Part shown: piece after piece, positions 14,688-57,111 of the stretch
How positions within the stretch are numbered: the stretch's first letter is position 1
Layout of the letters: each line of letters starts with the position of its first letter
Virus record (IMG/VR): IMGVR_UViG_3300027974_000025
DNA from: a virus
Lineage: Duplodnaviria; Heunggongvirae; Uroviricota; Caudoviricetes
Strand: one strand, 5' to 3'
DNA: 64,000 nucleotides
The notes under the pieces: generated by a model
What the model was told of the DNA's origin: nothing
Seen by the model: only the letters and a program-made list of their open reading frames with translations
Database searches by the model: none
Program-made: the position numbers and the translations under genes

Positions 14688-14692
14688 GTTTT

Positions 14693-26508: not shown

Positions 26509-26517
26509 TAAAGAACA

Positions 26518-33701: not shown

Positions 33702-35255
33702 ATGGCAATTCAAACAATTCCAGGTTTAACTGGTTTTACTTACGCTAGAGTCGCTTCAATGGATAAGCGTGCTGTAGGTAAGTTGACAGATTCAAACCAC
33801 CTAGAGAGTTTTCACTCTACAGAGCCAGCAGACTATGATAAGAAAATCATCAGTTTGTACACTCAGAGTTCTCTTTATAGTAATGATTTCTTAGACATGA
33901 TTAACAAGTCTACTCCTTACTATATTGATAACAACAGCGATGCTTGGAAATGGCAAGTACAAGTTCCTTACAAGTTCCCAAAAATCATTGACGTTCCTAC
34001 TACCACTTTGGAGTTATCCAAGCCTGGTATTGATGGTCAAGAGTTCCAATTGATTATCGACACTAATGAGTTCTCTAAGAACGCTATCATTTCTGTAGGT
34101 ACTCGTCAGTATGGTCCTCGTTTCTATGTAGTAAAAGATCCTGTTCCTTGGAATATGGGCTTCTTGTACACTTTCACTTTGGTGAGTGACAATCCTACAG
34201 TTGATTTCGTAAGTGGTACATTCTTACAAGTTGGTATCGAACTAGAATTAGTTGATGCTGCTATTGGTGAGTTTGATCAAGACTTATTAGGTCTTCCTCG
34301 TTTAGGTGAGCAAATCACAATGTTTGAATCTTTAGGTTCTGCATATGGTTATGAGCACAAAATTACAGAGTGGGCTGATGACAAGATGATGAGAGATGCT
34401 TCTGGAAAACCTTTAGATATCTTAGTATATGCTCCTCAAAGACGTAACCAATTACCTTTAACTCGTAATGATGTTAAGTGGGAACCATTTATTGAGTTCT
34501 GGATGCGTAAGTCTATGTTAGAATTAAAAGTTAAGCGTATGATCTGGGCTCGTCCTGGAACTGTGAAGACTAATGGTTCTAAGCAAGAATTAAAGCGTAC
34601 ATCTGCTGGTGTTTACCACAGAATGCGTAACAATGGTAACTTAGTTCAATACAATCGTGGTGAGTTCACTGCAAACTTGATTCGTTCAGTGTTTGGTGAC
34701 TTATTCTACAGACGTGTTGATGTTAAAGATAGAAGAGTTAAAATGTACACAAACGAAGCTGGTTTTGACGTGTTCCAACAAGCTTTGAAGAATGACGCTT
34801 TGAACTCTGGTTTAACTTTCATGGCTGATTCTGGTAACAGATACATGCAAGGAGAAGGACAACACATCACTTACAACTTTGCATTCGATGCAATGGTAAC
34901 TCGTGAGACTGGTCGTGTTGAATTAATCCACTTGAAAGAGTTAGATCTTCCTCAAACAAATTTAGAATTTGGACAGAACAAGAAGTCAACTCCAGTATTT
35001 ATGGTGTTTGATGTATCTCCAATGTCTGATGGTTCTATGATCAATAACATTCGTGAAGTACGTATGAAGGGTGCACCTTCTATGACTTGGGGTTATATCG
35101 ATGGTACTCGTCACCACTTAGGCTTTGCTAAGTCTCAAGGTATGAGTTCTGCAAACAAATTCCCTGGATATGAGATTTGGATGAAGGATCGTTGTGATGT
35201 ATTTATTGAAGATTTATCTAGAACTGTATTGATCGAAGAGATTCCTCAATTCTAA
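33702..35255 (+). CDS. major capsid protein (putative)
   Basis: 517 aa, directly after the scaffold. Its codon usage is shifted (Arg mostly CGT, Gly GGT, Ser TCT) relative to the rest of the genome, which suggests very high expression. A strong hairpin lies downstream. Confidence 0.5.
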   Translation: MAIQTIPGLTGFTYARVASMDKRAVGKLTDSNHLESFHSTEPADYDKKIISLYTQSSLYSNDFLDMINKSTPYYIDNNSDAWKWQVQVPYKFPKIIDVPTTTLELSKPGIDGQEFQLIIDTNEFSKNAIISVGTRQYGPRFYVVKDPVPWNMGFLYTFTLVSDNPTVDFVSGTFLQVGIELELVDAAIGEFDQDLLGLPRLGEQITMFESLGSAYGYEHKITEWADDKMMRDASGKPLDILVYAPQRRNQLPLTRNDVKWEPFIEFWMRKSMLELKVKRMIWARPGTVKTNGSKQELKRTSAGVYHRMRNNGNLVQYNRGEFTANLIRSVFGDLFYRRVDVKDRRVKMYTNEAGFDVFQQALKNDALNSGLTFMADSGNRYMQGEGQHITYNFAFDAMVTRETGRVELIHLKELDLPQTNLEFGQNKKSTPVFMVFDVSPMSDGSMINNIREVRMKGAPSMTWGYIDGTRHHLGFAKSQGMSSANKFPGYEIWMKDRCDVFIEDLSRTVLIEEIPQF

Positions 35256-37166: not shown

Positions 37167-38327
37167 ATGGCGGACTTTTCACTAACCACCCTCTTTGTAG
37201 TACCAGTAGGAAACACATTACCTAGCTCTGGATCTACACAGAATTTAACAGCTGGACAAGTTGGTTTCTTTAGAAGTGACTACACTGTTGCCACAGCTGG
37301 TAACATCGCTGCTTCTCCTTATTTCTATGTTGCTCAAGGTAGAGTTAACACGTATTTACAAGGCTCTAAAAGATCTGACAAGATCAAAGGATGTCCTAGT
37401 GGATCTGGATGTACTTCAAATGTAACTGAATGGTACAAGTCTAATGGCTGTGCTACTCCAGTGAACCAAGTAACTGACGTAGTTGACTTCACAGTAAAAC
37501 CAGGTGAAATCATCACTTTAACTTTACGTGGTTTCTCTAGCTACTTGAACACATTGTACTTCAATGGTTTCACTCGTTCTGTAACAGTAAACGCTCCATG
37601 TTTAGAATGTGGTGGTGATCCTTGTACAGATGTAGATGTGCCTGCATTGATTGATGCTTTGATTCTTAAGTTAGAATCACATGCTCCTGGTGATAACCCA
37701 GACAACATCTATTTGACTCAGTTCTATCAATTCCAAAGATTGGGTAACAATCAAAGTGCGTTCTTACGTATTACTGGTAAGCCATTGACTGCTTACGGTC
37801 AGCCTTGTGATGTTGCTGCATTCCCTTTTGAGTATGACAGATTCTACTTCAGAACTTTCATCTTTGCTGGACCAGCTACAACTGCTGACTTCATTGTTGA
37901 TGATCCTTGTAACAGAGTGGCTGAACCAATCATTCGTCAAAGATCTAACTATGCTGTTGGTACTTCTGCTGAAGTTCAACAATTAGAGAAGAACTTCTAT
38001 AGCTACCAAGCTGGTTACTTAAAGCATTTATACAGAATGAATGGTTACAACGAGAACTTTGAGTCTTGGGTAACTGATGGTCAAATCTATGATTTGTACT
38101 ATATCAAATTCAATGAGTATGATAAGAGTGCTTACCAATGGGGTGACTATATTTACGAAGATGCAACTGTAATCATTGCTGTTCCTAGCAACCAAACAAC
38201 TGCTATCGAAGCTGTATTAGAAGCTGCTTTAGGAGCTGTTGCAGGTGACACAGCTTGTATCACTACAACTAGCACTACAACTACTGTATGGCCTTCTACA
38301 TCAACAACAACTACTTTGATCCCTTAA
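37167..38327 (+). CDS. second highly expressed structural protein (putative major tail or capsid-associated protein)
   Basis: 386 aa. It has the same CGT/GGT/GCT/ACT codon bias as the capsid gene. It has a Thr-rich C-terminus and a strong terminator immediately downstream. Confidence 0.45.
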   Translation: MADFSLTTLFVVPVGNTLPSSGSTQNLTAGQVGFFRSDYTVATAGNIAASPYFYVAQGRVNTYLQGSKRSDKIKGCPSGSGCTSNVTEWYKSNGCATPVNQVTDVVDFTVKPGEIITLTLRGFSSYLNTLYFNGFTRSVTVNAPCLECGGDPCTDVDVPALIDALILKLESHAPGDNPDNIYLTQFYQFQRLGNNQSAFLRITGKPLTAYGQPCDVAAFPFEYDRFYFRTFIFAGPATTADFIVDDPCNRVAEPIIRQRSNYAVGTSAEVQQLEKNFYSYQAGYLKHLYRMNGYNENFESWVTDGQIYDLYYIKFNEYDKSAYQWGDYIYEDATVIIAVPSNQTTAIEAVLEAALGAVAGDTACITTTSTTTTVWPSTSTTTTLIP

Positions 38328-39355: not shown

Positions 39356-40486
39356 ATGTCTTGTTCAAATTGCCCTCCTGAATCTTGTTATAATGGATGC
39401 GTACAAGTTGTATCTGATCAATGTGTTAGATATACAGGTCTTGATAGCATACCTTTAGATATAACATCTGGAGATAATCTTCAATTAGTTATAGAAAATA
39501 TAATCGATAATCTAGTTCCTTTATTAAGTGGAACAGGTGATAAAATTACTATTGCATCAGTTATACGTTGTGCAATTGTAAATGGTTATTTACCTGCTCC
39601 TGTAGGTACAAATCAGTGGACTTCTGAACAATTATTCCAAACATTAGTTGAAGTAGTTTGTGATTTACAAACTCAAATTGATGCAATTGCTGCTGAAATA
39701 GCTATATTAAATGCTAACTATACAATTGGTTGTTTAACAGGAGTAACATCTAGCTCAGATACACATGCTATTGTCCAAGCTATTATAAATAAACTTTGTA
39801 CAACAGTGGCTGACCTAGCTGCTCTTGAACTTGATGTAGATACAAACTATGTTAAGCTTGCAGACTTAGACGCTTTGATAGCAGCTTATATAGCTAGTCA
39901 AGGTGGTGGTAATTCTAACCAACAGTATTTAAAAATGGTTCCTTATGTAGCATATGAATACTATGGAACATTAGCTAACTTTGATGGATCAGGTATTGGC
40001 ATCCCAGCAAATGGTTTCTTCAAAGTGTATTTGTGTAATGGATTAAATGGCACTCCTGATAAAAGAGGACGTGTAGGAGTGGGTGCTGTTGATAATGTTC
40101 CTGGTGGTCCTTTAGATGCTGCTGTAGATCCTACTACTGCTGGTAACCCAAACTATGGTCTTTACACCACAGCAGGAGCAAACACTGTAGTTTTAACTAC
40201 ACCACAACTACCTGCTCACTCGCACGTAGCTTTGGCAAATACAACTGTTACATTAAATGACCCAGGTCATACACATGCCATTGGACAAAGTGGTGTAACT
40301 GGTGGAGGTGGAACAATTGCTGTTGGTAACACATCACCTAAAAATATTCAAGCTGTAACTAGCACAACAGGCATTACAGTGGATTCTACAAATACAGATG
40401 TAACAATACAAAGTACAGGCAGTGGTTCAGCACATGCAAATATTCAGCCTGTCATAGGTGCGTATTACATCATGTATATTCCTTAA
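39356..40486 (+). CDS. tail fibre protein with H-x-H motifs
   Basis: 376 aa. The N-terminal MSCSNCPPESCYNGCVQVVSDQCVRYTGLDSIPLDI is paralogous to the N-terminus of the next (giant) fibre. The C-terminal region carries AHSHVA, GHTHAIG and SAHAN, which resemble phage distal-fibre metal-binding repeats. Confidence 0.55.
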   Translation: MSCSNCPPESCYNGCVQVVSDQCVRYTGLDSIPLDITSGDNLQLVIENIIDNLVPLLSGTGDKITIASVIRCAIVNGYLPAPVGTNQWTSEQLFQTLVEVVCDLQTQIDAIAAEIAILNANYTIGCLTGVTSSSDTHAIVQAIINKLCTTVADLAALELDVDTNYVKLADLDALIAAYIASQGGGNSNQQYLKMVPYVAYEYYGTLANFDGSGIGIPANGFFKVYLCNGLNGTPDKRGRVGVGAVDNVPGGPLDAAVDPTTAGNPNYGLYTTAGANTVVLTTPQLPAHSHVALANTTVTLNDPGHTHAIGQSGVTGGGGTIAVGNTSPKNIQAVTSTTGITVDSTNTDVTIQSTGSGSAHANIQPVIGAYYIMYIP

Positions 40487-40506: not shown

Positions 40507-43500
40507 ATGTCTTGTTTACCAGGAATGAACTGTGGAGGATATCAGTCAAATGATTGCTGTCCAGAAGTTAATTCAAATTGCGTAGATTATAGCGGACCCA
40601 ATTTACCTTGCTCAGGTGTACAAACACATGACTGCCTAACAACTGTTATTGAAAAGATAGATGACAAGTTATGTAGAGTGGGTAATGGTACGTCTGGTAC
40701 TTCTGGTTCTTCAGGTTCAACTTATGGAACAGCAGGAACTACAGGTACATCTGGTCGTGATGGTACAAGTGGTACTAGTGGAACTAGTGGCTCTACAGGT
40801 ACAACAGGAACAAGTGGTAGATCTGGTACCTCAGGAACTACAGGCACATCAGGTGGATCTGGTACTTCAGGAACTTCTGCAACAAGTGGATCTAGTGGTA
40901 GAAATGGATCAAGTGGTACGTCTGGTACAAATGGATCATCTGGTACTGCTGGAACTAGTGGAAGAGCTGGTACTACTGGTACAAGTGGTTCATCTGGTAC
41001 AACAGGAACAAGTGGATCAAGCGGTACAACTGGAACCTCTGGTACAACAGGTACAGACGGTTCTTCAGGAACATCAGGTTCTAGTGCTTCTTCAGGCACA
41101 TCAGGAACAACTGGTACAGATGGTTCATCTGGTACAACAGGTTCTTCTGGTATTTCAGGTGACAGATATTTTACTACATCTGCAGATTCACATACATTAG
41201 GTACTGCAGGAACTCTCACTGTAGGAACAAACTTAGCCTACACTCCTGGTCAATCAATTATTATTGCTCATAGTGCCACTGAATATCAAGTGAGCACATT
41301 ACTAACATATAATGCTGGTACAGGTGCCATGTCTTTTAGTGCACCTTCTACAACAGTAGGTTCTGGTACATTTACTGCGTGGAATGTAAATTTACAGGGA
41401 GCTGCAGGTGGTGATGGATCTAGTGGTACATCTGGCTCTGCTGGTACATCAGCATCTTCAGGAACAAGTGGTTCTACAGGTACAAGTGGAACTAGTGGTT
41501 CTACTGGTACTAGTGGTACATCTGGTACTTCTGGATCTAGTGGAACAACAGGAACCTCAGGAACAAATGGAACATCTGGTTCTACAGGAACTTCTGGCAC
41601 AAGTGGGACATCTGGTTCTTCAGGCACAACTGGTACAAGTGGAACATCTGGCACTTCTGGCTCAACTGGTACAACTGGTACATCTGGTACAGCAGGAACA
41701 TCTGGAACTAGTGGTTCTACAGGAACAACTGGTACAAGTGGTACTAATGGTACTTCAGGAACATCAGGCTCAACTGGAACCACTGGTACAAGTGGTACAT
41801 CAGGGTCAACTGGTACAACTGGAACAAGTGGTACTAATGGAACAAGTGGTACTAGTGGTTCTAGTGGTTCTAGTGGAACATCTGGCACATCTGGAACAAG
41901 TGGTAGTACAGGAACTACAGGTACCTCAGGTACAACTGGTACAAGTGGAACTAGCGGTTCTACAGGTACAAGTGGTACTTCAGGTACAAGTGGTTCTACA
42001 GGTACAAGTGGTTCTACAGGAACATCAGGAACAAGTGGTACAACTGGAACTAGTGGTACAAATGGTACTAGTGGAAGTAGTGGTACAGCAGGTACAAATG
42101 GTACTAGTGGATCAACAGGAACTTCTGGAACATCTGGTTCTACAGGAACTTCTGCTAGTTCAGGACAATCTGGTACATCAGGTAGTTCTGGTACATCTGG
42201 TACAGCAGGTACATCAGGATCTGTAGGTACATCAGGTACAACTGGAACTAGTGGAACCTCAGGTACAAGTGGTTCAACAGGATCTTCAGGCACATCAGCT
42301 TCTTCAGGTACATCAGCTTCTAGTGGTTCTAGTGGATCTTCTGGAACTAGTGGGACATCAGGTACTAGTGGTACAACTGGTTCAAGTGGAACAACAGGTA
42401 CTTCTGGTACATCAGGTACAAGTGGTTCAACAGGTACCTCAGGTACAACTGGTACAAGTGGTACATCTGGAATAAATGGTACTGCTGGAACTTCTGGTAC
42501 TAATGGATCTAGTGGTACATCAGGTATCTCTGGTAATATATATGCAACAACATCTTCTACTAACCTAACAATAGGTACAGGTACTAAAAACCTTACTGTT
42601 GCAACAGGTTTATCTTATACGGTTGGACAAAGTGCTATTATAGCAAATAGTGTAGGTAATGACATGACTGGCCCTGTTATTTCATATAACAGCGGAACAG
42701 GTGCCCTATCTGTAAATGTATTAACTACTAATGGTAGTGGTACATATTCTACATGGAGTGTTAACTTGGCTGGTGCCTCTGGTGGTACTGGTTCTTCTGG
42801 AACTTCTGGATCTTCTGGTTCTACAGGAACTAGTGGTACTTCTGGATCAACAGGAACCTCTGGTACAAGTGGAACTAGTGGTACATCAGGGTCAACTGGT
42901 ACAACTGGAACTAGTGGTACTTCAGGTACTAGTGGTACATCAGGATCAACTGGAACATCAGGAACTTCTGGTACTAGTGGTTCTACTGGTACATCTGGAC
43001 TTACTGGAACTGCAGGTACAAGTGCTTCAGCAGGAACTAGTGGATCAAATGGATCTTCTGGTTCTTCTGGTACAACTGGAACCTCAGGGACAAGTGCTTC
43101 TTCTGGATCAAGTGGTACAGCAGGAACTTCTGCTTCTTCTGGTACTTCTGGATCTAGTGGTTCATCTGGTTCATCTGGAACAACTGGTACTACAGGAACT
43201 AGTGGAATTAATGGAACAAGAGGAACAAGTGGAACTACAGGTACCTCAGGTACAACTGGTACAAGTGGTTCAACAGGAACAACAGGTACCAGTGGAACTA
43301 GTGGTATAAATGGAACTAATGGTATTAATGGAACAAGTGGAACCTCTGGTACAAATGGTACTAGTGGTACAGCTGGTACTAATGGAAGTAGTGGAACAAA
43401 TGGTACTAGTGGAATAAATGGAACAAGTGGTACAACTGGAACTAGTGGTACAACAGGTACCAGTGGAACAAGTGGATCTAGTGGTACAGTTGGTACAAGT

Positions 43501-46488
43501 GGTACAGTTGGTACAAGTGGAACTAATGGTTCTAACGGAACATCTGGAACAACAGGTACTAGTGGTACAAGTGGTACAAATGGTTCTAATGGAACATCTG
43601 GTACTAGTGGTACAAATGGTACAAGCGGAACAAATGGTTCAAGTGGTACATCTGGAGTTAATGGTACATCAGGAACAGCAGGTTCTAGTGGTACATCTGG
43701 AACAAGTGGTTTTAATGGAACATCTGGTACAACAGGTACCTCTGGAACAACTGGAACAACTGGTACTAGTGGAACAAGTGGAACAAATGGTTCTAATGGT
43801 ACAACAGGTACTAGTGGTACCGTTGGTACAAGTGGAACATCTGGCACTAGTGGATTTGGTACATCAGGTACAAGTGCCTCTTCTGGTACAGCAGGAGTAA
43901 GTGGAGATAGATATCAAACAACTTCCACTAGTGCATTCACTCTTGGTAACAATGGTACTATAACAGTGGGAACAGGACTTGCTTATACAGCAGCTCAGGT
44001 TATTCGTATTGTATATGATGCCACTCGCTATCAAGATTCTTTAGTTATATCATATAATAGTGCAACTGGTTCATTATCTTTTGATACTCCTACCCTTACA
44101 GTTGGATCAGGAACATTTAGTTCTTGGACAGTTAACTTAGCTGGAGCTAGTGGTGGTAATGGTTCTAGTGGTGTAAGTGGTACAGCAGGTACTTCTGGTG
44201 CTAGAGGTACAAGTGGTACAGCTGGTACATCTGGTACATCTGGAACTAGTGGTTCATCAGGAACAACAGGTACAGCTGGTACTAGTGGATTTGGAACAAG
44301 TGGGACATCAGGAACATCTGGTACAAATGGATCAAATGGATCTAGTGGAACTGCTGGTACGTCTGGTACTAGTGGAACTAATGGTTCTAGTGGCACATCT
44401 GGTACTTCTGGATCTTCTGGTACAAGTGGTACAGCAGGAACTAGTGGATCTAATGGATCTAGTGGTACTTCAGCTTCTTCAGGTACAGCAGGTACAAGTG
44501 GTACTTCTGCTTCTAGTGGTACATCAGGTACAAATGGATCAAGTGGAACTGCAGGTATAAGTGGAATATCTGGAACTAGTGGTACATCTGCATCTTCAGG
44601 TACATCTGGAGCAAATGGTCCAACTGGTGCAACTGGTACCAATGGTACATCAGGACTAACTGGAGCAAGTGGTTCAAGTGGAACATCTGGATTAACTGGT
44701 GCTAGTGGTTCTTCTGGTACATCAGGTGCAAATGGTGGCACTGGATCAAGTGGAACATCAGGTGCAACTGGAGCATCAGGTACTAGTGGTAGTTCAGGTT
44801 CTAGTGGTACTTCAGGAGAGAGTCCATCAATAAGTGGATTATTACCTTTGGCTGGAGGCACAATGACAGGTCAAATTGTTCTCAGTAAATCTACATCAGT
44901 GTCTGATTATTCTAATGGTATAAGATTCCCTAATGATCCATTTGGTGGATCTGGAGATACAAGTGGTTTTAGAATATATGCTTCATCAGGCGAAGCACAA
45001 GTGGTAGAAATATATGTTAAGAATGATGCTGATGATATAATTAATTTCTCAGCACCTTCTAATAATGGTGTAACAATAAATAATAGTGTTATTTGGAATA
45101 CAGCTAATTTAGCAAATGTAAGTCAACTATCTAATGATGCTGGATATATTACAGCTTCTGGAAGTATTACAGGTTCTGCTAGAAGTTTAGATAGTAGTAA
45201 CTATATTAATAGAACAGGATCTTCAGGTAATTACAATATAGACTTCCAAAACACACCAGCTGGTACTTACAGATATCAAGGAGATGATGCATCTGCAACT
45301 AATAATCCAGGTGGTACTTGGTGGATGGTAGAAAACATGCGTCACTCAAATGGTAGTAACTATTGGGGTACACAAATTGCATGGGGCTGGGAAGATAATG
45401 CTAATAGACTAGCTACAAGAAATATTTCTGGAGGAACCTTTAGTTCATGGGTTTATTATCTAAATAGTTCTAATTTCACTAGCTATGCTCCATCTTTAAC
45501 AGGAGCAGGAGCTTCTGGTAGTTGGGGTATTAGTGTTACAGGTAGTGCTGGTTCATTATCTAACACCAACATATCTCAGTTCACAAATGATTCAGGTTAT
45601 ATAACAATAGCAGCATTGTCCTCATACCTTCCTTTAACAGGAGGTACAATGTCTGGTGCAATATTATTTGCTAATAATATAGGTACTGCTTTACAAGGTA
45701 CTATGGCTGATAATGATTTTTGGAGAATATTAGGAGGCAATACAGGAAGCAACAATGGTTATTTAGAAATAGCTACAGCAGATGATGGAACAGAGCCTAT
45801 CTACTTCAGACAATACACAGGAGTGTTTGGTTCTTTAGTTAGAACAGCTACAATATTAGATGGTTCAGGTAATACATTATTACCAGGTAATGTTGGAATT
45901 GGAACAAATCCAAACTACAAGCTCGATGTTAATGGTTCAACTTTCTTAGCAGGTTCTACTAAATTTATAGCAGGAGGTACTAACTATAATGAAAATATTA
46001 GATGTACAGCTTCGTCAAATGATTATTCCTCCATTATATTAGGAGCTGTAGCTGGTGATATAGGTACAGGAGTTGGACAATGGACTTTGGTAAGATGGCC
46101 ATCAGCAAATAGTTATAAATTTACTATTAGATATAATAATACTGATAGTCTTACTATAGATACATCTAATAACTTAACAATGTTAGGTAGTGTAACTGCT
46201 AGTTCTTTCTTTGAAGGTTCAGATATAAGATTTAAAAACGTATTAGAAACAAATCCAGATATCAAAGTATTAGGAATAGATGTAATTAAATTTACAAGAA
46301 CAGATGATGATACCAATGCAGTTAGGTATGGTTATTCAGCTCAACAAGTGCAAGAGGTAATACCAGAGGCAGTTGCAGGAGATGATAAATTATCTGTAAA
46401 CTATATGGATGTACATACATTAAAGATTGCAGCATTAGAAAAACGTATTGCAGAATTAGAAGCTAAATTGAATAAATATGGCATATAG
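40507..46488 (+). CDS. giant collagen-like tail fibre (1993 aa) with a C-terminal peptidase-S74 intramolecular chaperone domain
   Basis: After an N-terminal Cys-rich docking domain come about 1100 residues of uninterrupted Gly-X-Y triplets with X,Y almost only Thr/Ser/Ala/Asn (GTSGTSGSTGTTGTSG...). Three paralogous domains of about 85 aa are interspersed in the triplet region. The fibre-repeat motifs LPLAGGTMTGQIVL and LPLTGGTMSGAILF follow. The C-terminal GSDIRFKNVLE...YGYSAQQVQEVIPEAVAGDDKLSVNYMDVHTLKIAALEKRIAELEAKL matches the S74 chaperone signature (SDxRxK...). Confidence 0.8.
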   Translation: MSCLPGMNCGGYQSNDCCPEVNSNCVDYSGPNLPCSGVQTHDCLTTVIEKIDDKLCRVGNGTSGTSGSSGSTYGTAGTTGTSGRDGTSGTSGTSGSTGTTGTSGRSGTSGTTGTSGGSGTSGTSATSGSSGRNGSSGTSGTNGSSGTAGTSGRAGTTGTSGSSGTTGTSGSSGTTGTSGTTGTDGSSGTSGSSASSGTSGTTGTDGSSGTTGSSGISGDRYFTTSADSHTLGTAGTLTVGTNLAYTPGQSIIIAHSATEYQVSTLLTYNAGTGAMSFSAPSTTVGSGTFTAWNVNLQGAAGGDGSSGTSGSAGTSASSGTSGSTGTSGTSGSTGTSGTSGTSGSSGTTGTSGTNGTSGSTGTSGTSGTSGSSGTTGTSGTSGTSGSTGTTGTSGTAGTSGTSGSTGTTGTSGTNGTSGTSGSTGTTGTSGTSGSTGTTGTSGTNGTSGTSGSSGSSGTSGTSGTSGSTGTTGTSGTTGTSGTSGSTGTSGTSGTSGSTGTSGSTGTSGTSGTTGTSGTNGTSGSSGTAGTNGTSGSTGTSGTSGSTGTSASSGQSGTSGSSGTSGTAGTSGSVGTSGTTGTSGTSGTSGSTGSSGTSASSGTSASSGSSGSSGTSGTSGTSGTTGSSGTTGTSGTSGTSGSTGTSGTTGTSGTSGINGTAGTSGTNGSSGTSGISGNIYATTSSTNLTIGTGTKNLTVATGLSYTVGQSAIIANSVGNDMTGPVISYNSGTGALSVNVLTTNGSGTYSTWSVNLAGASGGTGSSGTSGSSGSTGTSGTSGSTGTSGTSGTSGTSGSTGTTGTSGTSGTSGTSGSTGTSGTSGTSGSTGTSGLTGTAGTSASAGTSGSNGSSGSSGTTGTSGTSASSGSSGTAGTSASSGTSGSSGSSGSSGTTGTTGTSGINGTRGTSGTTGTSGTTGTSGSTGTTGTSGTSGINGTNGINGTSGTSGTNGTSGTAGTNGSSGTNGTSGINGTSGTTGTSGTTGTSGTSGSSGTVGTSGTVGTSGTNGSNGTSGTTGTSGTSGTNGSNGTSGTSGTNGTSGTNGSSGTSGVNGTSGTAGSSGTSGTSGFNGTSGTTGTSGTTGTTGTSGTSGTNGSNGTTGTSGTVGTSGTSGTSGFGTSGTSASSGTAGVSGDRYQTTSTSAFTLGNNGTITVGTGLAYTAAQVIRIVYDATRYQDSLVISYNSATGSLSFDTPTLTVGSGTFSSWTVNLAGASGGNGSSGVSGTAGTSGARGTSGTAGTSGTSGTSGSSGTTGTAGTSGFGTSGTSGTSGTNGSNGSSGTAGTSGTSGTNGSSGTSGTSGSSGTSGTAGTSGSNGSSGTSASSGTAGTSGTSASSGTSGTNGSSGTAGISGISGTSGTSASSGTSGANGPTGATGTNGTSGLTGASGSSGTSGLTGASGSSGTSGANGGTGSSGTSGATGASGTSGSSGSSGTSGESPSISGLLPLAGGTMTGQIVLSKSTSVSDYSNGIRFPNDPFGGSGDTSGFRIYASSGEAQVVEIYVKNDADDIINFSAPSNNGVTINNSVIWNTANLANVSQLSNDAGYITASGSITGSARSLDSSNYINRTGSSGNYNIDFQNTPAGTYRYQGDDASATNNPGGTWWMVENMRHSNGSNYWGTQIAWGWEDNANRLATRNISGGTFSSWVYYLNSSNFTSYAPSLTGAGASGSWGISVTGSAGSLSNTNISQFTNDSGYITIAALSSYLPLTGGTMSGAILFANNIGTALQGTMADNDFWRILGGNTGSNNGYLEIATADDGTEPIYFRQYTGVFGSLVRTATILDGSGNTLLPGNVGIGTNPNYKLDVNGSTFLAGSTKFIAGGTNYNENIRCTASSNDYSSIILGAVAGDIGTGVGQWTLVRWPSANSYKFTIRYNNTDSLTIDTSNNLTMLGSVTASSFFEGSDIRFKNVLETNPDIKVLGIDVIKFTRTDDDTNAVRYGYSAQQVQEVIPEAVAGDDKLSVNYMDVHTLKIAALEKRIAELEAKLNKYGI
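40684..44822 (+). repeat. low-complexity triplet-periodic DNA (GGW-ACW-WSW) encoding the collagen-like region, in four blocks
   Basis: Blocks at about 40684-41157, 41416-42531, 42791-43892 and 44161-44822. They are separated by the three domains of about 255 nt. The region generates many spurious antisense ORFs. Confidence 0.8.
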
Positions 46489-48013
46489 TGATTTAGCATA
46501 TAATCAAGGAGTATCATTCAATAGCTTGAACAGTGGAGTATCCCAAGGATATTTTACTGCTAAAACTAGTATTCCATTTACGCCAAAACAAGTAACTAAA
46601 TCAGAATGTAATACCTATGTAAATATTGATCCAACTTATTTGCCATTTGCTGAAAAAGCAAATAATCAAATAATAGTAAAAAGAGATTTAAGAGCTAATG
46701 AAGCTGCTATTTCAATATCCAACTTTTTTTTCACAGGAACAATAACAGATGTAACAGTCAATGGAGTTAGTATAACAGGTGCTTCATTCCCATTAGATAT
46801 AGGTAATAGCACAACAGGTTACACTACACAATTAGGAACATACGATATATTGGTTTATTATGCAGACGCAGATATGCCTTCAAATTATATGAGAATTCAA
46901 GATTCTGCATATAACAATTTATGTGTAGATGGTTTTTCTTCATTAGGACCAGGACCTTATTATGTTACATTTTCTAGCCAAGTTGTAAACACAAGCATTG
47001 GCGTTGTAATAGAATCAGGAGATGGTTCTTGTATTGGTCCCCTACCACCACCATTTTTCCCAGATTCTCCAATAAGTGCAGTAGCAGTAAGTAGAGGGAC
47101 TGGTCAGTACATGATTGCTGCTATATCTAAATTTTTATCTAGTGGATATCAAGCTGGTGGATTATATGTTTCTTCTAACTATGGTTCATCTTGGACATTT
47201 GTGCCAATAGTAGGTTATTGGATTGATGTAGCTATATCAGATGATGGTTCGCATATGCTTGCAGTAGAACAATATGGTAAAGCATACAGATCTGCTAATT
47301 ATGGGGTAAGTTGGTCTGAAATAAGTTCACTTGGTACAGATTCTTTTAGGGGACCTTCTATTTCTGGAGATGGGCAATTTCAATTAATTTGTACATACTC
47401 TGCATCATCAACTTCATTTATAAAAAAATCAAATGATTATGGTGCAAGTTGGACAACAGCATATTCATATTTTAGGTCAAATTTTTTTAGTTCTACAATA
47501 AATTCATCTGGAAGTGTTTTTTTAGTGGGAGGAGGTATTGGAAGTAATTCATTTATACTACGTTCAGTAGATCAAGGCTCATCATGGTATGAAGTATATT
47601 TTGCTCAATACGGAGGAGCTGTAAATGACATAAATATAAATGCATCAAATGGTTGGGTACTTGCTTCAAATTTTGGGTTTAATAATGAAGGATTTTACTT
47701 AGTTAAATCAAATGATTCAGGTGCAAGTTGGTTACAAATTAATGGAGGATCAGCTCAAGAAAATTGGATTAAAACAGCTGTTAGTAATACACCAACAGGA
47801 TTAGCTTTATACAATATTGGAATCACTTCTTATATTCAACAAGTTTCAGCTACAGGCCCAGTTCCTTTAGCCACAGTAAGTAATTTAACTAGTAGTCCTG
47901 TAAAAGACTGGCATGCATTAGGTAATTCAGATAATGGTCAATACATATTAGCAGGAGCTTATAATGGATTGTTCTTGTCTACAAATTATGGAAGTAGTTT
48001 TACAGCATTATAA
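46478..48013 (+). CDS. BNR/Asp-box repeat (sialidase-like beta-propeller) protein, a probable receptor-binding or glycan-degrading fibre component
   Basis: Six SxDxGxxW-type Asp-boxes: SSNYGSSWTF, SANYGVSWSE, SNDYGASWTT, SVDQGSSWYE, SNDSGASWLQ and STNYGSSFTA. Its start overlaps the giant fibre stop. Confidence 0.65.
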   Translation: MAYSDLAYNQGVSFNSLNSGVSQGYFTAKTSIPFTPKQVTKSECNTYVNIDPTYLPFAEKANNQIIVKRDLRANEAAISISNFFFTGTITDVTVNGVSITGASFPLDIGNSTTGYTTQLGTYDILVYYADADMPSNYMRIQDSAYNNLCVDGFSSLGPGPYYVTFSSQVVNTSIGVVIESGDGSCIGPLPPPFFPDSPISAVAVSRGTGQYMIAAISKFLSSGYQAGGLYVSSNYGSSWTFVPIVGYWIDVAISDDGSHMLAVEQYGKAYRSANYGVSWSEISSLGTDSFRGPSISGDGQFQLICTYSASSTSFIKKSNDYGASWTTAYSYFRSNFFSSTINSSGSVFLVGGGIGSNSFILRSVDQGSSWYEVYFAQYGGAVNDININASNGWVLASNFGFNNEGFYLVKSNDSGASWLQINGGSAQENWIKTAVSNTPTGLALYNIGITSYIQQVSATGPVPLATVSNLTSSPVKDWHALGNSDNGQYILAGAYNGLFLSTNYGSSFTAL

Positions 48014-48028: not shown

Positions 48029-48649
48029 ATGACAGTATTAATAACATTAACTTTAGCAGGGACAGATGTTGGTCCCTTCAATCTTTTTTCAAATGTGGAT
48101 GGGTATACTACACCATTAGCAACAGGAATATCTAGAGCTGCATTAATAGCAGGATACAGCCTTACAGGTGTGCCTGATGATGCTGCAGTTATAAGAGCTC
48201 AGTCTACAGGAACTTGTACAAACTATCTTGATATGTATCTAAGTGGTGGTACAACCACTACATCTACTAGCACTTCTTCTACAACAAGCTCTACAACTAC
48301 ACCACCTCCAGCATGTCTCACTGGTGATACAAGTGCTGTGGCATCATGTGCAGGTGGGGAATCAGCTCTATTCACAGTGACTGTAGGAAATACAGCAATC
48401 ATCACTCCTGGTGGATATTACTACTCTGGATCTGGTACAAGAACTTATACAGCATACATTATGAATGCTGCTAATGATACAGTGTTGTACACATTCAACT
48501 ACACTCAGACAGGTTCTTCTCCTGGTACTTGGACATCTGATTTGCCTCTTAACACACTATCTGCAGGTAGCTATCGCCTAAGAACAGACACTGTGAACTG
48601 TTTCACTAGCTCTGGTTCATTTAGTTTAAATGCTAGCTGTGGTTCATAA
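48029..48649 (+). CDS. fibre-associated protein, member 1 of a paralogous N-terminal-domain family
   Basis: Its N-terminus MTVLITLTLAGTDVGPFNLFSNVDGYTTPLATGISRAALIAGY is shared with ORFs 57128 and 57573. It has a Ser/Thr/Pro linker (TTTSTSTSSTTSSTTTPPP). Confidence 0.5.
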   Translation: MTVLITLTLAGTDVGPFNLFSNVDGYTTPLATGISRAALIAGYSLTGVPDDAAVIRAQSTGTCTNYLDMYLSGGTTTTSTSTSSTTSSTTTPPPACLTGDTSAVASCAGGESALFTVTVGNTAIITPGGYYYSGSGTRTYTAYIMNAANDTVLYTFNYTQTGSSPGTWTSDLPLNTLSAGSYRLRTDTVNCFTSSGSFSLNASCGS

Positions 48650-51302: not shown

Positions 51303-52277
51303 ATGGCATACTACTACAAGTACAATTTTGTCTCACCTGAACCAGTTTATTCAACTGTTAAAGAAGAGTTAAAATCTTATTTTGACACAGGAGCAGTTGA
51401 TGATTTGTTGTTCCCTACTTACTTAGACAAGTGTCTACAGAAGTTGGGCAGATCAAGTTATGTTATTGCTGAACAAACATTAGATATTTCTGGTTATGAA
51501 GCTAGACTTCCTGACAACTTCTTTGCTGTTAGAGAAGCTTGGATGTGTACAGAGTTACCATCTAACTATCCATATCAGACAGCTAATTCATTCTATTCTC
51601 AAGCTGCTACACAAACAACTATTCAAGTGAGTCCTATTGTAACAGACTGTACTATTCCTAGTCCATGTTGTGGCAATGTAGGATGTGATGGTAGCTGTAT
51701 GCCTGAGATTATACAAACTGTATACAAAACTAATCAACAGATTGCTAGAGGAATAAGAAAACAATATCTATTAAAACCAGGTAATATATCTTGTCAAAAC
51801 AGATGTGATGTAACTTATACAGATGCTTGGCAGTTTTATACAAGTGTGCCTCCTGTACGTGAGTTCACTCCAGGAAGTGCTGGTTATGATAGCTTTGACA
51901 TTAGAGATAATAAGTTTGTTACTAACTTTAGTTCTGGTGTTGTTCATATGATATTCTATGCTACAGACTATGATGCTGTTGGTAATCAATTGATTCCTGA
52001 CAACTATCGTATAAGAGAGTTTGTAGAAGCCTTTATTAAATACAAGGTGTTTGAGACATTGTCTAATCAAATCAATGATGAAACTTTCAATCAAATACAG
52101 CAGAAGTTAGTATACTACAAACAGCTACATGATGAAGCATTCATTATGGCTAACATTGAAATAAAGAAGCAAGACGCATGGACTAAACAAAGAAGAGTAA
52201 GAAATGACTTACAACGCTTTGCACAATATGAATTACCAAATAGAAGCTCAAGATATGGCAGTGGATGGAATAGATAA
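51303..52277 (+). CDS. virion/tail structural protein (hypothetical)
   Basis: 324 aa with a Cys cluster CTIPSPCCGNVGCDGSCMPE. Confidence 0.4.
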   Translation: MAYYYKYNFVSPEPVYSTVKEELKSYFDTGAVDDLLFPTYLDKCLQKLGRSSYVIAEQTLDISGYEARLPDNFFAVREAWMCTELPSNYPYQTANSFYSQAATQTTIQVSPIVTDCTIPSPCCGNVGCDGSCMPEIIQTVYKTNQQIARGIRKQYLLKPGNISCQNRCDVTYTDAWQFYTSVPPVREFTPGSAGYDSFDIRDNKFVTNFSSGVVHMIFYATDYDAVGNQLIPDNYRIREFVEAFIKYKVFETLSNQINDETFNQIQQKLVYYKQLHDEAFIMANIEIKKQDAWTKQRRVRNDLQRFAQYELPNRSSRYGSGWNR

Positions 52278-55200
52278 TCAAGAAACATCCAATATAAGAC
52301 AAGAATACAATCTTGGCAGAGTTGGATTAGACATGGACTCTTCTGTAAATCAAATACAGAAGGGTAAGCTTTCTTATGCTCTAAACGCAGCATTAGAAAA
52401 CTTTGACTCTAATTCTGTAAGCTATCAAAACGAGCCAAGTAATGAAGCTTGTTTAGAGTTTCCTGCAGGCTACCATCTTATTGGAACACATTTTATTCAA
52501 GAGAAAAATAAACACATATTCTTCTTAGCTAATCCTGAAACAGGGGGAAGTGAGATAGGATATATGAATAACAATGATTGTATCTATCATACACTTTGTA
52601 CTCCTATTCCTGATACAGAACTAACAGTTTGTGCTAATTCTCCATGCTTAAACTTTGATATAAACTATCCAATACACAAAGCTGTACATAAGATAACCAA
52701 TTGTACTACAGAAGTTTATTGGACTGATGGATTAAATCCAAGAAGATTTATTAATATTGAACAGGTTCCTTACATTACCACCTATCTAAACAATCAAACT
52801 TGTGATCCACAGATCCAAGCAACATTAGATTGTAATAAGTTAAATGTACAACCTAACTTTCAAATTCCTAATATAGAGGTTTCTGATATTGTTGTAGGAG
52901 GAGATTTAAAAGCAGGTACTTATCAGTTTGCTATTCAATATGGCAATGCTTCAGGAGATGCTTACACATCTTATTACTCTGTAACTAATCCTGCATCTAT
53001 TGCTAATACAGAGGTGACTACACCTGACTTTCAATATTCTGTAGGTAAGTCTATTGTATTGAGTATCACTAACTTAGACATTACAGGATACTTCCAATAT
53101 TTTAACTTGGCTGTTATAAAAACCATCAATAATGGTACCACTGTAGAATTAGTGGGAACATATAACATTCAAGAAAAGAATAGATTAATTACTTACACAG
53201 GACAGAATGTAACTCAAATTCCTTTGAGTCTTGCAGATGTTCTTGAAAAGTTCCCTTATTATGAGATTGCTAAAGACGTAACAAATGTACAAGATGTTAT
53301 AGTTTGGGACAACCTTACCTCCATTGATAGAATCAACTATCAAAGCATAGCTAATCAAATACAACTTCAATGGGAGACATATAAACTACCAGCTGGTAAT
53401 ACCTATGCTGATGGTTTTTATACAGCTAACTTGAGAGGATATTTGAGAGATGAGGTGTATGCTTTTGAAATAGTATTCTTATTAGATAATGGTAAACAAA
53501 CAGATGGTTTCCATATTCCTGGTAGAGCTAAGAACTTCAACGAGATATCTGAGCCAGATGTAACAACAGCTAATGCTGATTATATAGGAGATGGACTTCC
53601 TCAACCTTATTGGAAGATATATAATACAGCTTCTGTATCTACAACATATCCTGTTCCTACAGGAGATGCTAAAAAGATAGGAGATGCATATCCTTATCAA
53701 TCTGGAGACTTTGCATATTGGGAGTCTACAGACTTATATCCTTGTAATACAGATGTATGGGGAGAGCTTGCTGGAACACCAATTAGACACCATAAGTTTC
53801 CTGATGTTCTTGTAAGTCCTTACTTTGAGAGCCCAAGTATCATATATTCTGGAGGTCAGATAGATCCTGTAATGCAAACAGCTAATGCCATCTATCCAAT
53901 AGGTGTGAAGATAGATGTACAACAAATAGAATTTATCATTCAAAACTCTAGTTTAACAAATGCAGAGAAGGCATCTATTGTTGGATTTAAAATAGTAAGA
54001 GGTAATAGAAGTACAAACAAATCTATTATTGCTAAGGGTATATTAAGAAATGTAGGTAAGTATGAAAGAGAAGGAACAGAATATTACTATCCTAACTATC
54101 CTTACAATGATTTAAGTACAGATCCATTCTTACTTAAAGAGAACAATGCATACAATTCACAATGTGATACATTCACAATAACAACAATAACTCCTGGTAA
54201 GTTACAATATACAAACTGTAATACAGGAGAACCAGATACATTAACCTTTGATAGTAGTGTTACTAGTATTTGTTCTATTACACTTCCTGTTGTAAATAGT
54301 GGATCAGCTACATTTGTAAATGTTACAGCTACATCATATACAATTAATGTAATTTCTGGTAGCACTTCTTTTAATTATACAGATATAATTACAAACGCTT
54401 TACAGAGCATTACTATTGTTTCAGGAAATCCACAATCTGTAAATTCAAAAACTGTTCCTGTACGTACAGGCGGAAGTACTAACTTTACAATGGTTGCTAG
54501 TAATGTTGGTCAAAACAATGAATGTTATCCTAAACAATTAGATGGATTTAATAATGCTGACTCTCCTTACAGACAAGTGTTTAACTCTCCAGAAACTTCT
54601 TTTGGACAGCCTACATTAGGTAATGTTCTTAAGTTAGAAAGTGTATTGTTTGGTGGAGGAAGAGCTCATTTTGTTGAGGTGCAAAAACATGCAATGTATA
54701 AGCTCCTTACTAAGCAAATACAAATTGATGCTTTGGATTCTAGTAGAAGAATAGCTGACCTAGGAGGGTTTAGTGCCACAGCAATGTTTACAGCTTACCA
54801 GTCTTATCTACAAATATACATCAATGGTGTTAGTAGAAAGAACTTTGCATATTCTTTTAACTCTATATCTAGCTATGACTATAGTTCAGATATTCCTAAT
54901 AATCAGGGAGTTAAACAAAGACAACTTGATAAATCTCAATACATATTTCCAGGTGTACAGAACGTAGGTGATAATCATGATATTAACAACTGGAATAGAG
55001 AATCTTCAGTTTATGTTAAAACCATTGATAGTAGAGATGGTGTACCTTTTACAGTGGCTCCTCTACCATATCCTAATCAAACTCCTTCTCTTGTTGTAGC
55101 AGGTGTAAGTCAGATTAGTGATAATTCAAGATTTACTCTTGGAGAATCAGGAAACTGTGCATCTCCTGAATTTCAACAACCTATAAAAGTGGTATCTTAT

Positions 55201-57111
55201 TATGGTTCTATAAAGACTATTAATAATGCTCAATGGGGGCAGATATATTCATATCAAACTATTGACACAGGATTCCAAAGAATATTTAATACCATCCCAG
55301 CTAATGATCCTGAAGTGGTATTTGGTGGTGATACATACATTGGTAAATTTGGATTTAAAACAAAACTTCCTTTCTTTATAGATAATAGAGTGGGTGCTCC
55401 TGATGATTCTGATATATACTACGATGAGATTGGTAATGTAGCCTATCCACAATATTGGTATTCAGCAAGATCTATACTATCTGATTACTATGTAGGAAGC
55501 ACATTGATGAAGAACATCATCTCTATCAAAGCTCATAATTTTGATTGTCCTAATGATGCTATTGTAGATACATCAACAACTACAACATCAAGTTCTACCA
55601 CTCCTGCTGTAGGAACAACAACTTCTGGTTCTTTCAACTATGTGTACGATGGTAAGATGTATGTGTTTGCTTATGGTGTTCCTTACTACTATGTAGAAAG
55701 TTCTATTAATGTAGACTTACGTCAGGCATTCAATAACTTAGAAGGTGACTTCTACCCACACGTAAGCTCAGGTATTCCTGATAGCTGGTTCCAAGAAAGT
55801 AGAGTTCCTATTGCATTTGATAATACTTATTATTACAATACAACTTTCTCTAAACAGAATACAGAAAACTTCTTCTCTCATTTACCAACAGATTGGAAAC
55901 AACAGTTGTGTTATACATATTTTCCATTCAGAGCAATATATTCTGACAGACAGGAAAGCTATTCTGATAATAGAATAAATAGCTGGTTGATATATCGTCC
56001 AGTGAGCTTCTTTGATTTCCCTCAGAACTATGGTAATCTAATATCATTAGATGGTATTCAGAACAGAGCTACATTAGCTAGGTTTGAGAACAAGACTTTA
56101 TTGTATGGCAACTTATTAACAATTGATACAAGCAATCCTCAGGCTGCATATTTAGGCAATCCTTATTTATTTGGTGGTCCTGGTGGAACTCCTCCAGTAG
56201 ATTATGCTGAGACAGATCTTGGATTTGTTGGTTGTCAGAATAAGTTTTTACTTAAGATACCTCAAGGACAAATAACTATTGATGCTAAGAGAGGACAGAT
56301 ATTTTTAATCCAAGGAACACAGGCACAGGAAATTTCAGGGTTTGGTTCTGGTCTTAATAGGTTCTTTACAGACCATTTGGCATTTGAAATCTTGAGATAC
56401 TTTCCAATAGTAGATACAGACAACCATTTCAAAAACATTGGATTACATGGTGTATATGATAGTAAGTTTGAAAGAATTATTATCACTAAGTTAGATTATA
56501 TTCCTCAGCCAACTAAGGATGTGTTTTATGATGATGTGGCTAAAGAGTTTTATGTTAATCAACCTGTGGCTGGTAATATTTCAGTTAAGAAATATGTTGA
56601 GGTGACAGATCTTGAATACTTCTGTAACAAATCATGGACTGCATCATTTAACTTGAATACAAAGAGCTGGGTGAGTTTCCACACATACCTACCTAACTTC
56701 TACATAGGAGAAAACAACTTCTTCTATTCTGGCTTAAATGAAGGTTGTGATGTCACAGCAATAGCAGTTACAGAAATACCTTCTCCAACCACAACTACAA
56801 CCACAACAATAATTATATATTGTAACCTAACTGGTACAGCTGTAGTGACAGGATATCCTTGTCTTTTAGAGGGAACAGTGGTAGAAGAAACTACAACAAC
56901 AACAACTTCTACATCTACTAGCACAACAACAAGTACAACAAGTAGTACTACTTCTACATCTACTAGTAGTACTACTTCTACATCTACTAGTAGTACTACT
57001 TCTACATCTACAACTACTGTACCTTTTGAATGTACATTAGTACCAGGATCTTTTACAACAGAACCTGATTGTGCATTAGTAGCAGGAGAATTTATATATG
57101 AACCTTCATAA
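52255..57111 (+). CDS. large virion structural protein (about 1620 aa), a putative tail/host-recognition protein. The start is uncertain (track ORF begins at 52204).
   Basis: A very long, beta-rich ORF. The C-terminal Thr/Ser linker is encoded by a perfect 24-nt x3 tandem repeat. It ends with a Cys-containing module of about 40 aa. Confidence 0.5.
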   Translation: MAVDGIDNQETSNIRQEYNLGRVGLDMDSSVNQIQKGKLSYALNAALENFDSNSVSYQNEPSNEACLEFPAGYHLIGTHFIQEKNKHIFFLANPETGGSEIGYMNNNDCIYHTLCTPIPDTELTVCANSPCLNFDINYPIHKAVHKITNCTTEVYWTDGLNPRRFINIEQVPYITTYLNNQTCDPQIQATLDCNKLNVQPNFQIPNIEVSDIVVGGDLKAGTYQFAIQYGNASGDAYTSYYSVTNPASIANTEVTTPDFQYSVGKSIVLSITNLDITGYFQYFNLAVIKTINNGTTVELVGTYNIQEKNRLITYTGQNVTQIPLSLADVLEKFPYYEIAKDVTNVQDVIVWDNLTSIDRINYQSIANQIQLQWETYKLPAGNTYADGFYTANLRGYLRDEVYAFEIVFLLDNGKQTDGFHIPGRAKNFNEISEPDVTTANADYIGDGLPQPYWKIYNTASVSTTYPVPTGDAKKIGDAYPYQSGDFAYWESTDLYPCNTDVWGELAGTPIRHHKFPDVLVSPYFESPSIIYSGGQIDPVMQTANAIYPIGVKIDVQQIEFIIQNSSLTNAEKASIVGFKIVRGNRSTNKSIIAKGILRNVGKYEREGTEYYYPNYPYNDLSTDPFLLKENNAYNSQCDTFTITTITPGKLQYTNCNTGEPDTLTFDSSVTSICSITLPVVNSGSATFVNVTATSYTINVISGSTSFNYTDIITNALQSITIVSGNPQSVNSKTVPVRTGGSTNFTMVASNVGQNNECYPKQLDGFNNADSPYRQVFNSPETSFGQPTLGNVLKLESVLFGGGRAHFVEVQKHAMYKLLTKQIQIDALDSSRRIADLGGFSATAMFTAYQSYLQIYINGVSRKNFAYSFNSISSYDYSSDIPNNQGVKQRQLDKSQYIFPGVQNVGDNHDINNWNRESSVYVKTIDSRDGVPFTVAPLPYPNQTPSLVVAGVSQISDNSRFTLGESGNCASPEFQQPIKVVSYYGSIKTINNAQWGQIYSYQTIDTGFQRIFNTIPANDPEVVFGGDTYIGKFGFKTKLPFFIDNRVGAPDDSDIYYDEIGNVAYPQYWYSARSILSDYYVGSTLMKNIISIKAHNFDCPNDAIVDTSTTTTSSSTTPAVGTTTSGSFNYVYDGKMYVFAYGVPYYYVESSINVDLRQAFNNLEGDFYPHVSSGIPDSWFQESRVPIAFDNTYYYNTTFSKQNTENFFSHLPTDWKQQLCYTYFPFRAIYSDRQESYSDNRINSWLIYRPVSFFDFPQNYGNLISLDGIQNRATLARFENKTLLYGNLLTIDTSNPQAAYLGNPYLFGGPGGTPPVDYAETDLGFVGCQNKFLLKIPQGQITIDAKRGQIFLIQGTQAQEISGFGSGLNRFFTDHLAFEILRYFPIVDTDNHFKNIGLHGVYDSKFERIIITKLDYIPQPTKDVFYDDVAKEFYVNQPVAGNISVKKYVEVTDLEYFCNKSWTASFNLNTKSWVSFHTYLPNFYIGENNFFYSGLNEGCDVTAIAVTEIPSPTTTTTTTIIIYCNLTGTAVVTGYPCLLEGTVVEETTTTTTSTSTSTTTSTTSSTTSTSTSSTTSTSTSSTTSTSTTTVPFECTLVPGSFTTEPDCALVAGEFIYEPS
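56941..57012 (+). repeat. perfect tandem repeat, 24 nt x3 (agtagtactacttctacatctact), encoding SSTTSTST x3
   Basis: Read directly in the sequence, inside the coding region of the 1635-aa protein. Confidence 0.8.

Follow-up and report, generated by a model that had tools for sequence, protein, structure and literature searches.

The stretch of DNA analysed here (64,000 nucleotides of IMG/VR record IMGVR_UViG_3300027974_000025, hereafter the window) belongs to an uncultured phage that is crAss-like, and carries at 40507..46488 (+) an open reading frame (ORF) of 1,993 codons plus stop, whose product is likely to be a long homotrimeric tail fibre. The protein consists of a Cys-rich N-terminus, a collagen-like shaft in four blocks with almost no proline or charge, three copies of an 81-residue domain interspersed between these blocks, a distal region and a C-terminal module of the S74 intramolecular chaperone type. 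In the reading we favour, this chaperone would nucleate four triple helices bearing three beads and then cleave itself off. The 1,993-amino acid (aa) product matches tail-fibre families in PHROG with a best E of 1e-127, and its repeat region hits both tail-fibre and 'collagen like minor tail' families. These matches fit, as do the synteny and fold matches described below, the tail-fibre identity proposed in an earlier note that was made from the DNA letters alone.

The gene is not an assembly artefact, since two other metagenome assemblies carry it with a single nucleotide of difference. Through the neighbouring 376-aa protein we reached five public contigs. In two independent contigs from JGI (3300009152 and 3300009160) the fibre gene is of the same length, differs at 1 of 5,982 nt and encodes the same protein with zero amino-acid changes, while its first 1.1–1.3 kb are matched exactly in two independent read-set assemblies. 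A third JGI contig (L002; 3300027973, Ga0209298_10000010; 114,732 bp) is identical to the window and breaks off in collagen block 4, at window position 44520, indicating that assemblers do struggle there. Nevertheless, the idea that the giant repeat is a product of mis-assembly or a frame error, a danger raised in the earlier note, is effectively refuted. Beyond the recurrence of the gene in other samples, its repeats differ enough in their codons to be assembled (nearly all arrays detected by Tandem Repeats Finder have a period divisible by 9 nt, and their copies match at only 60–88%, or 95% in one 39-bp array), one reading frame is open over all 1,993 codons in a genome of ~35% G+C, and a three-barrel orthologue of 1,541 aa is encoded by another phage. 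Many related IMG/VR contigs also stop within their own fibre gene, the repeats being a frequent assembler breakpoint. The exact 1,993-aa sequence was not found in a collection of 15 billion proteins, though two JGI contigs encode the identical product, which probably reflects an indexing gap for a low-complexity protein. Megablast with 16 kb around the gene returned no match among 50,697 phage records. Between 40661 and 44861 the collagen repeat also contains many ORFs of 74–410 aa in other frames or on the minus strand (e.g. 42615..43847, minus, 'VPLVPEVP...'). We rejected these as genes, regarding them as mechanical by-products of the 9-nt periodicity.

The collagen-like shaft

Counting runs of at least four, the protein has 357 perfect Gly-X-Y triplets, or 381 if in-phase Gly-to-Ala triplets are included. 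This agrees in scale with the ~370 consecutive triplets previously described, although they are not strictly consecutive: there are 14 interruptions, mostly in-phase Gly-to-Ala replacements (ASS, ATS or ASA), with two that follow a GFG triplet and one inserted single Tyr. The triplets form four blocks (aa 61–220, 298–678, 756–1135 and 1213–1440) that sum to 1,149 aa. Drawn so as to abut the intervening domains, the blocks are block 1 at aa 61–218 (40687..41160, +), block 2 at aa 300–676 (41404..42534, +), block 3 at aa 758–1133 (42778..43905, +) and block 4 at aa 1215–1440 (44149..44826, +). All four are backed by their G-X-Y runs and interruptions, with the Pfam Collagen match as further evidence for block 1, composition for blocks 2 and 3, and the diverged DNA repeats for block 2. 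With the Pfam Collagen model (PF01391) the protein reaches 438.8 bits (cutoff 27.2; E=9.9e-135), and no further G-X-Y run of eight or more triplets occurs elsewhere in the window on either strand.

Among the perfect triplets, position X is Thr in 239 and Ser in 76, and position Y is Ser in 220, Thr in 68, Asn in 37 and Ala in 18. Thr and Ser together fill ~84% of the X and Y positions, and GTS alone accounts for 166 of the 381 triplets. Across the four blocks there are 2 Pro, 6 Asp, 1 Glu and 8 Arg but not a single Lys (15 charged residues in all), which bears out the earlier description of an essentially proline-free shaft using almost only Thr, Ser, Ala and Asn at X and Y. Block 4 has more Ala and Asn than the other blocks and contains the only Pro within a triplet run (aa 1372). 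By comparison, Pro occupies 22–48% of X positions in viral and EPcl collagens, where charged residues are frequent (PMC3368898, Table 4), and bacterial collagens typically combine Pro at X with Thr at Y and depend on polar or charged residues for their hydration networks (PMC8968730). The shaft thus lacks the stabilisers typical of characterised collagens, imino acids at X/Y and charged pairs, which are a typical and not a strictly defining feature. That its composition is atypical of bacterial collagens, as the earlier note had it, holds against published collagens; it is not unique, however, as proline-free G-T-S sequence and the collagen-barrel-collagen arrangement are common in related uncultured phages. 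A literature search for natural proline-free collagen-like proteins, or for the barrel domain described below, found nothing relevant, which is weak evidence as most subscription journals lay outside the search.

The conservation of glycine argues for a real packed triple helix rather than a disordered linker. The Gly period is kept over 1,149 aa despite the divergence of the DNA repeats, and Gly is exchanged in phase only for Ala or Ser, the smallest residues, as a helix core would impose. Within this gene the replacement is Ala only (12 cases); in the 3,329 triplets of related fibres it is Ala in 162 cases and Ser in 14, with no other residue. Most short gaps in these relatives (145 of 163) have lengths that are multiples of three residues, so that the phase is kept. 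The triplet autocorrelation revealed no consistent super-period, and a polyproline-II bundle or other turn-containing fold was set aside on that ground. At the textbook rise of 0.286 nm per residue of a collagen helix, the four segments would measure ~46, 109, 109 and 65 nm, for a predicted total of ~330 nm. Imino-acid-poor collagen segments have been associated with a looser 10/3 helical symmetry (PMC13138384), which we would expect in the G-T-S shaft as well.

Barrels, distal region and chaperone

The domains between the collagen blocks are three paralogues of 81 aa with a mutual identity of 50–60%, so that the layout and paralogy of the earlier description stand, while its domain length of ~85 aa does not. 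They are located at aa 219–299 (node 1; 41161..41403, +; 50% and 58% identical to the other two copies), aa 677–757 (node 2; 42535..42777, +) and aa 1134–1214 (node 3; 43906..44148, +), and score 89–107 bits against a profile of the domain, with collagen directly on their flanks (copies in the query and its relatives were counted using hmmsearch with --max). No Pfam or NCBIfam model matched the isolated domain; in homologues, Tudor/LSM matches below threshold were discounted as the kind of noise that small barrels generally produce. Modelling of node 2 by AlphaFold2 from an 80-sequence alignment gave a seven-strand beta-barrel with a mean pLDDT of 94.7, and the domain therefore models as an autonomous fold. 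The model resembles phage tail-protein domains, namely the N-terminal and accessory barrels of capsule depolymerase tailspikes and of tip-attachment protein J. In a viral structure library, 24 UniProt proteins of uncultured phages match it at E<=1e-3 (best TM ~0.95), most of them named just 'Collagen triple helix repeat' or 'Tail fiber protein'.

A word-indexed search with the barrel profile recovered two fragments only. An exhaustive hidden Markov model (HMM) search of 1.84 billion cluster representatives retrieved 3,682 barrel proteins at E<=1e-3 and 1,066 at E<=1e-10, with 1 to ~12 copies per protein. Of the best 150 representatives, 106 have at least 10 G-X-Y triplets, and 31 of these 106 proteins are nearly proline-free. 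In most cases the triplets run right up to the barrel, which is entered at G-D-[RK]-Y and left at V-N-L-x-G-A. Among deposited phage genomes, tblastn located the barrel in two Synechococcus phages and two records of one 735-kb uncultured phage genome only. A pattern scan of bacterial genomes, which used a 3-sequence barrel alignment and so reaches close relatives only, yielded 10 loci (L087–L096), eight of them in Bacteroidota metagenome-assembled genomes (MAGs), with some contigs of 600–790 kb; these eight are the only hint of a host for the uncultured phage. In two metagenome proteins (P0123 and P0132) the barrel and collagen module stands behind an N-terminal signal-peptide-like sequence, and a third (P0185, 3,286 aa) has 302 triplets and 8 barrels. 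The presence of the module in signal-peptide-like proteins and on large Bacteroidota MAG contigs implies that it extends beyond phages or resides in prophages.

The distal fibre or receptor-binding region of the predicted mature protein (aa 1441–1904; 44827..46218, +) contains LPLAGGTMTG at aa 1446, LPLTGGTMSG at aa 1708, two NxSQxxNDxGYIT motifs and a conserved beta-sandwich core at about aa 1570–1654 (45214..45468). Fibre or receptor-binding proteins of pyocins and phages are the best matches to the distal domain by fold. The LPLAGGTMTG repeat had been taken as T4/T5-like; the motif is there, but the likeness is weak, amounting in tblastn to 39–47% identity over ~100–120 aa to fibre genes of Klebsiella and related phages. 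The Klebsiella phages concerned have genomes of 163–175 kb and are presumably T4-like. The last 554 aa have more than 715 homologues, many with precomputed PF13884 assignments. Compared with PDB sequences by phmmer, this same segment gave chance matches only, the S74 structures being reached only through a profile of the family.

The last 89 residues (aa 1905–1993; 46219..46485, +) constitute the S74-type intramolecular chaperone (Pfam PF13884), as the earlier note had recognised. The domain starts with SDIRFK at aa 1905, which places the nucleophile Ser1905 and the base Lys1910 five residues apart, and Ser, Asp and Lys are invariant in a 16-member alignment of the last ~100 aa. The C-terminal family profile matches S16 gp37 (6f45, 1.6e-8), the GP4 fibre (8jov, 6.5e-6), T5 pb1 (8hqz, 1.1e-5) and MyRF (7dc3, 6.8e-5), and more weakly the GA-1 neck appendage (3gud, E=0.34). 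Close homologues of the module score above the PF13884 cutoff, among them P0180 with 59.1 bits. The domain end, LKIAALEKRIAELEAKL, aligns with the coiled-coil segment of solved S74 members and itself reads as a coiled coil from its sequence. In MyRF, which trimerises by means of a C-terminal coiled coil, the cut falls at P586/S587, S587 and K592 being the equivalents of endoNF residues S911 and K916 (PMC8326128). Because characterised S74/ICA proteins are cut N-terminal to the nucleophilic Ser, and not after it as previously suggested, we predict self-cleavage at G1904/S1905 with K1910 as the base.

Fibre family, assembly and competing readings

The structural protein encoded three genes upstream of the fibre has at least 598 relatives in IMG/VR, and we compared collagen-like ORFs downstream of this protein in the best 80 of these loci, where it is 77–92% identical. 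The comparison included 41 such ORFs (30 complete and 11 cut by the contig end), with 46–250 triplets and 0–15% Pro, the complete fibres measuring 535–1,542 aa. They share a syntenic plan of N-terminal anchor, collagen, one barrel, collagen, binding region and S74 module, which related phages retain with 72–250 triplets; the S74 module ends every complete ORF, and 38 of the 41 have exactly one barrel. Names of relatives in the databases are all 'hypothetical protein'. Among the 41 only one ORF shares the three-barrel plan, L040 (1,541 aa; IMGVR_UViG_3300025889_000082, 13328..17953), with 250 triplets and no Pro. Its collagen blocks are 149, ~220, 219 and 228 aa long, compared to 160, 381, 380 and 228 aa here, so that block length does vary among related phages, as the earlier note had proposed to check.

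The N-terminus and barrels 1 and 3 are 80–85% identical to those of L040 (85% for the N-terminus and 80% for either barrel), while for barrel 2, which differs in origin from barrels 1 and 3, the closest relative is the lone barrel of L009 (66%). The S74 module is closest to that of L007 (81%) and only 44% identical to that of L040, and two distal segments have no match within the compared set of relatives. As its segments have different closest relatives and it possesses three barrels instead of the usual one, the gene is, judged by sequence, an expanded and recombined mosaic member of a common, unnamed fibre family. It is the largest, triplicated member that we found, and not a one-off. With a distal region and an S74 module that differ from those of this gene, L040 represents a natural length and host-range variant.

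Several elements of the fibre have counterparts in known systems. S74/ICA proteins such as K1F endosialidase, T5 pb1, S16 gp37, the GA-1 neck appendage and MyRF share a C-terminal dyad of Ser and Lys at a distance of five residues, with a trimeric coiled coil behind it. In the solved cases, however, the chaperone folds triple beta-helix or beta-rich shafts, whereas the substrate here would be a collagen-type helix. Database relatives with both PF01391 and PF13884 exist, though our literature and structure searches found no solved or biochemically studied S74 chaperone with a collagen-type substrate. The tail fibre of Ralstonia phage GP4 (PDB 8jov chain 1) has 439 aa and low sequence similarity to this fibre. 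FACITs such as collagen IX offer an analogy of design only: NC domains between their COL segments trimerise, set the register and act as hinges, but there is no homology to this fibre, and FACITs are Pro/Hyp-rich, modified after translation and often heterotrimeric.

The side-tail-fibre proteins EPclA–D of E. coli O157:H7 prophages are likewise trimeric, with a collagen-like stalk between globular N- and C-terminal domains, and EPclB has an extra globular domain between two stalk regions (Ghosh et al. 2012, PMC3368898). Their collagen has 48% Pro at X, is rich in Asp, Glu, Lys and Arg and spans ~110 residues, compared to 0.2% Pro and 1.3% charged residues over 1,149 residues here. Their domains are PfN, PCoil, PfC and Pf2, with neither the barrel nor the S74 chaperone of this fibre. 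Bacillus BclA (GPT repeats) and Streptococcus Scl1/Scl2 also form surface filaments without hydroxyproline that rely on Thr and on hydration or glycosylation (PMC8968730); they differ in having Pro at X (~31% in Gram-positives) or many charged pairs, and Thr at Y, where this shaft has Thr at X and Ser at Y. The NCBIfam SclB and Lcl models match the repeats, reflecting composition and not orthology.

We postulate that assembly would begin at the C-terminus, where the S74 chaperone, recognisable by homology and dyad, would join three chains through its trimerising coiled coil. Folding would then run from C to N via the receptor-binding region, zipping up four collagen-type triple helices. Stabilising such a relaxed, imino-acid-poor helix would fall to the Thr/Ser hydroxyls and to Asn, perhaps together with bound water or sugars. 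Between these segments each chain would fold its 81-residue barrels, and the resulting trimeric knobs, which the earlier note suggested as nucleation or registration nodes, most likely re-register the chains and act as hinges, or may alternatively serve as weak glycan-binding points. With autonomous barrels placed between its segments, the fibre should look like a thread with three trimeric beads. The folded chaperone would cut itself off at G1904/S1905 to leave a mature chain of 1,904 residues, and the Cys-rich N-terminus would dock the fibre on the tail, beside a shorter fibre bearing the same module. A more specific version of this scheme we put forward only tentatively: a ~330-nm triple helix essentially without imino acids or charge, held by Thr, Ser and Asn via hydration or an undiscovered O-glycosylation, nucleated by S74 and re-registered by an undescribed barrel family.

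A number of points weigh against the triple-helical tail fibre. In those bacterial and viral collagens that have been characterised, stability depends on Pro at X and/or on charged pairs (PMC3368898; PMC8968730), and with neither of these the shaft may have low thermal stability. We infer the triple helix itself from sequence constraints, and no glycosyltransferase was found among the 18 window proteins scanned with Pfam, a scan that was not exhaustive. On this sequence alone PF13884 scores 20.8 bits (E=4.7e-4), marginally below its cutoff of 22, and the gene lies directly after the head genes, so that a role as a head fibre is possible. The shaft could also be read as a set of flexible, Ser/Thr-rich and possibly O-glycosylated mucin-like tethers that are not triple-helical. 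Thr/Ser-rich composition is typical of O-glycosylated linkers, ~84% of X and Y here are Thr or Ser, further proteins in the window have Thr/Ser tracts as well, and with so few Pro (2) and charged residues (15) in the 1,149 aa, both known stabilising strategies of bacterial collagens are missing. Yet a disordered linker would have no reason to place Gly at every third residue over 357–381 triplets while the DNA diverged to 60–88% identity in nearly all arrays, nor to accept only Ala or Ser in its place, here and in the 3,329 triplets of relatives. The conserved phase of 145 of 163 short gaps and the Pfam Collagen match (E=9.9e-135) speak for a triple helix too, and we consider such tethers unlikely.

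A genuine collagen-like fibre might instead sit on the head or neck, as a decoration or whisker, and not act as a receptor-binding tail fibre. Other phages, such as SPP1, have collagen-like proteins that decorate the head; the gene here comes after the capsid block and before the ring gene, and its Cys-rich N-terminus has no characterised homologue. S74 chaperones, however, occur in known tail fibres, tailspikes and neck appendages, and among solved structures the nearest matches come from tail fibres; the PHROG families are those of tail fibres, the best fold matches of the distal domain are receptor-binding proteins, and the C-terminal modules are swapped among relatives as is usual for receptor-binding modules, which makes a head or neck location quite improbable. 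As to the beads, they could be carbohydrate-binding modules that provide several weak, reversible contacts with host glycans, and not registration nodes. The barrel resembles those of capsule depolymerase tailspikes and tip-attachment protein J, is also found in signal-peptide-bearing Bacteroidota proteins and on Bacteroidota MAG chromosomes, and varies from 1 to ~12 copies per protein, barrel 2 differing in origin from barrels 1 and 3. We regard glycan binding as a possible though minority explanation of the beads, and prefer their role in register and as hinges.

Collagen-like phage fibres, S74 chaperones and database proteins with both Pfam domains were already known. Compared to described systems, what is new is a proline-free and charge-free composition at such length, an unnamed barrel family and a triplicated, beads-on-thread layout; particular to this gene within its family are the triplication and the length. 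The shaft composition tests current rules of triple-helix stability, as all characterised bacterial and viral collagens that our literature search found use Pro at X and/or charged pairs, and this shaft has neither, yet shows the sequence constraints of a real helix. Should the tentative, more specific version above prove true, collagen would have a third means of stabilisation in addition to hydroxyproline and charge pairs, and designed collagens a new class of registration domain to draw on. The 81-aa barrel, with thousands of clusters that mostly have collagen repeats and no name in Pfam or NCBIfam, may act in register, as a hinge or in glycan binding, and could serve in recombinant collagen engineering. 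Relatives with ~70 to 357 triplets and swapped distal modules offer a natural series in which fibre length and bead number can be set against host finding, drawn from an abundant uncultured crAss-like group (at least 598 related IMG/VR loci).

Genomic context and neighbouring genes

By PHROG and precomputed Pfam assignments, the fibre gene is surrounded by genes for a large terminase, a portal of P22 type, a capsid protein of crAss type and a crAss ring protein. The nearest terminases are encoded by Leptolyngbya phage Lbo-JY46 (38%), by Cellulophaga phages phi17:2 and phi4:1 (31%) and by crAss-like phages of the gut. The fibre gene follows the capsid block (major head protein at 33702..35255 and structural genes of unknown function) and precedes the ring gene.

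Just upstream lies the gene of a shorter fibre of 376 aa (39356..40486, +), whose C-terminus matches tail-fibre PHROGs (E=5e-17). Its Cys-rich N-terminus is 36% identical over 42 aa to that of the giant fibre (aa 1–60, with 8 Cys; 40507..40686, +), a presumed virion-attachment domain with no characterised homologue in Pfam or PHROG. The two fibres probably share one type of docking site. Downstream, an ORF of 511 aa (46478..48013, +) overlaps the last 11 nt of the fibre gene. It has at least six Asp-box/BNR-like motifs (SSNYGSSW, SANYGVSW, SNDYGASW, SVDQGSSW, SNDSGASW and STNYGSSF), which suggest a beta-propeller, and its sole database match is a sub-threshold one to the NCBIfam F510_1955 glycosylhydrolase (E=2.6e-11). 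The protein may be an enzyme associated with the fibre, or else a second binding protein; it is the overlap that suggests a possible link with the fibre.

Two further proteins of the structural module (37167..38327 and 48029..48649, both +) have Thr/Ser-rich tracts, TTTSTTTTVWPSTSTTTT at the C-terminus and TTTSTSTSSTTSSTTTPPP as an internal linker, which may point to hydroxyl-rich and possibly glycosylated segments being used more widely in the virion. The left third of the window has replication genes on the minus strand (ribonucleotide reductase, DnaB-like and SF2 helicases, GHKL ATPase). At ~23300..27100 the coding strand switches, with a change of sign in GC skew, from minus-strand replication genes on the left to plus-strand structural genes on the right; this gap of ~3.8 kb, free of ORFs of at least 150 aa, is a possible site of divergent promoters or an origin. 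Further to the right, two very large virion-protein genes (52204..57111 and 58439..61555, both +) encode proteins of 1,635 and 1,038 aa. The first matches 'virion structural protein' families in PHROG, and by analogy with other crAss-like phages both may be ejected cargo or polymerase-type proteins.

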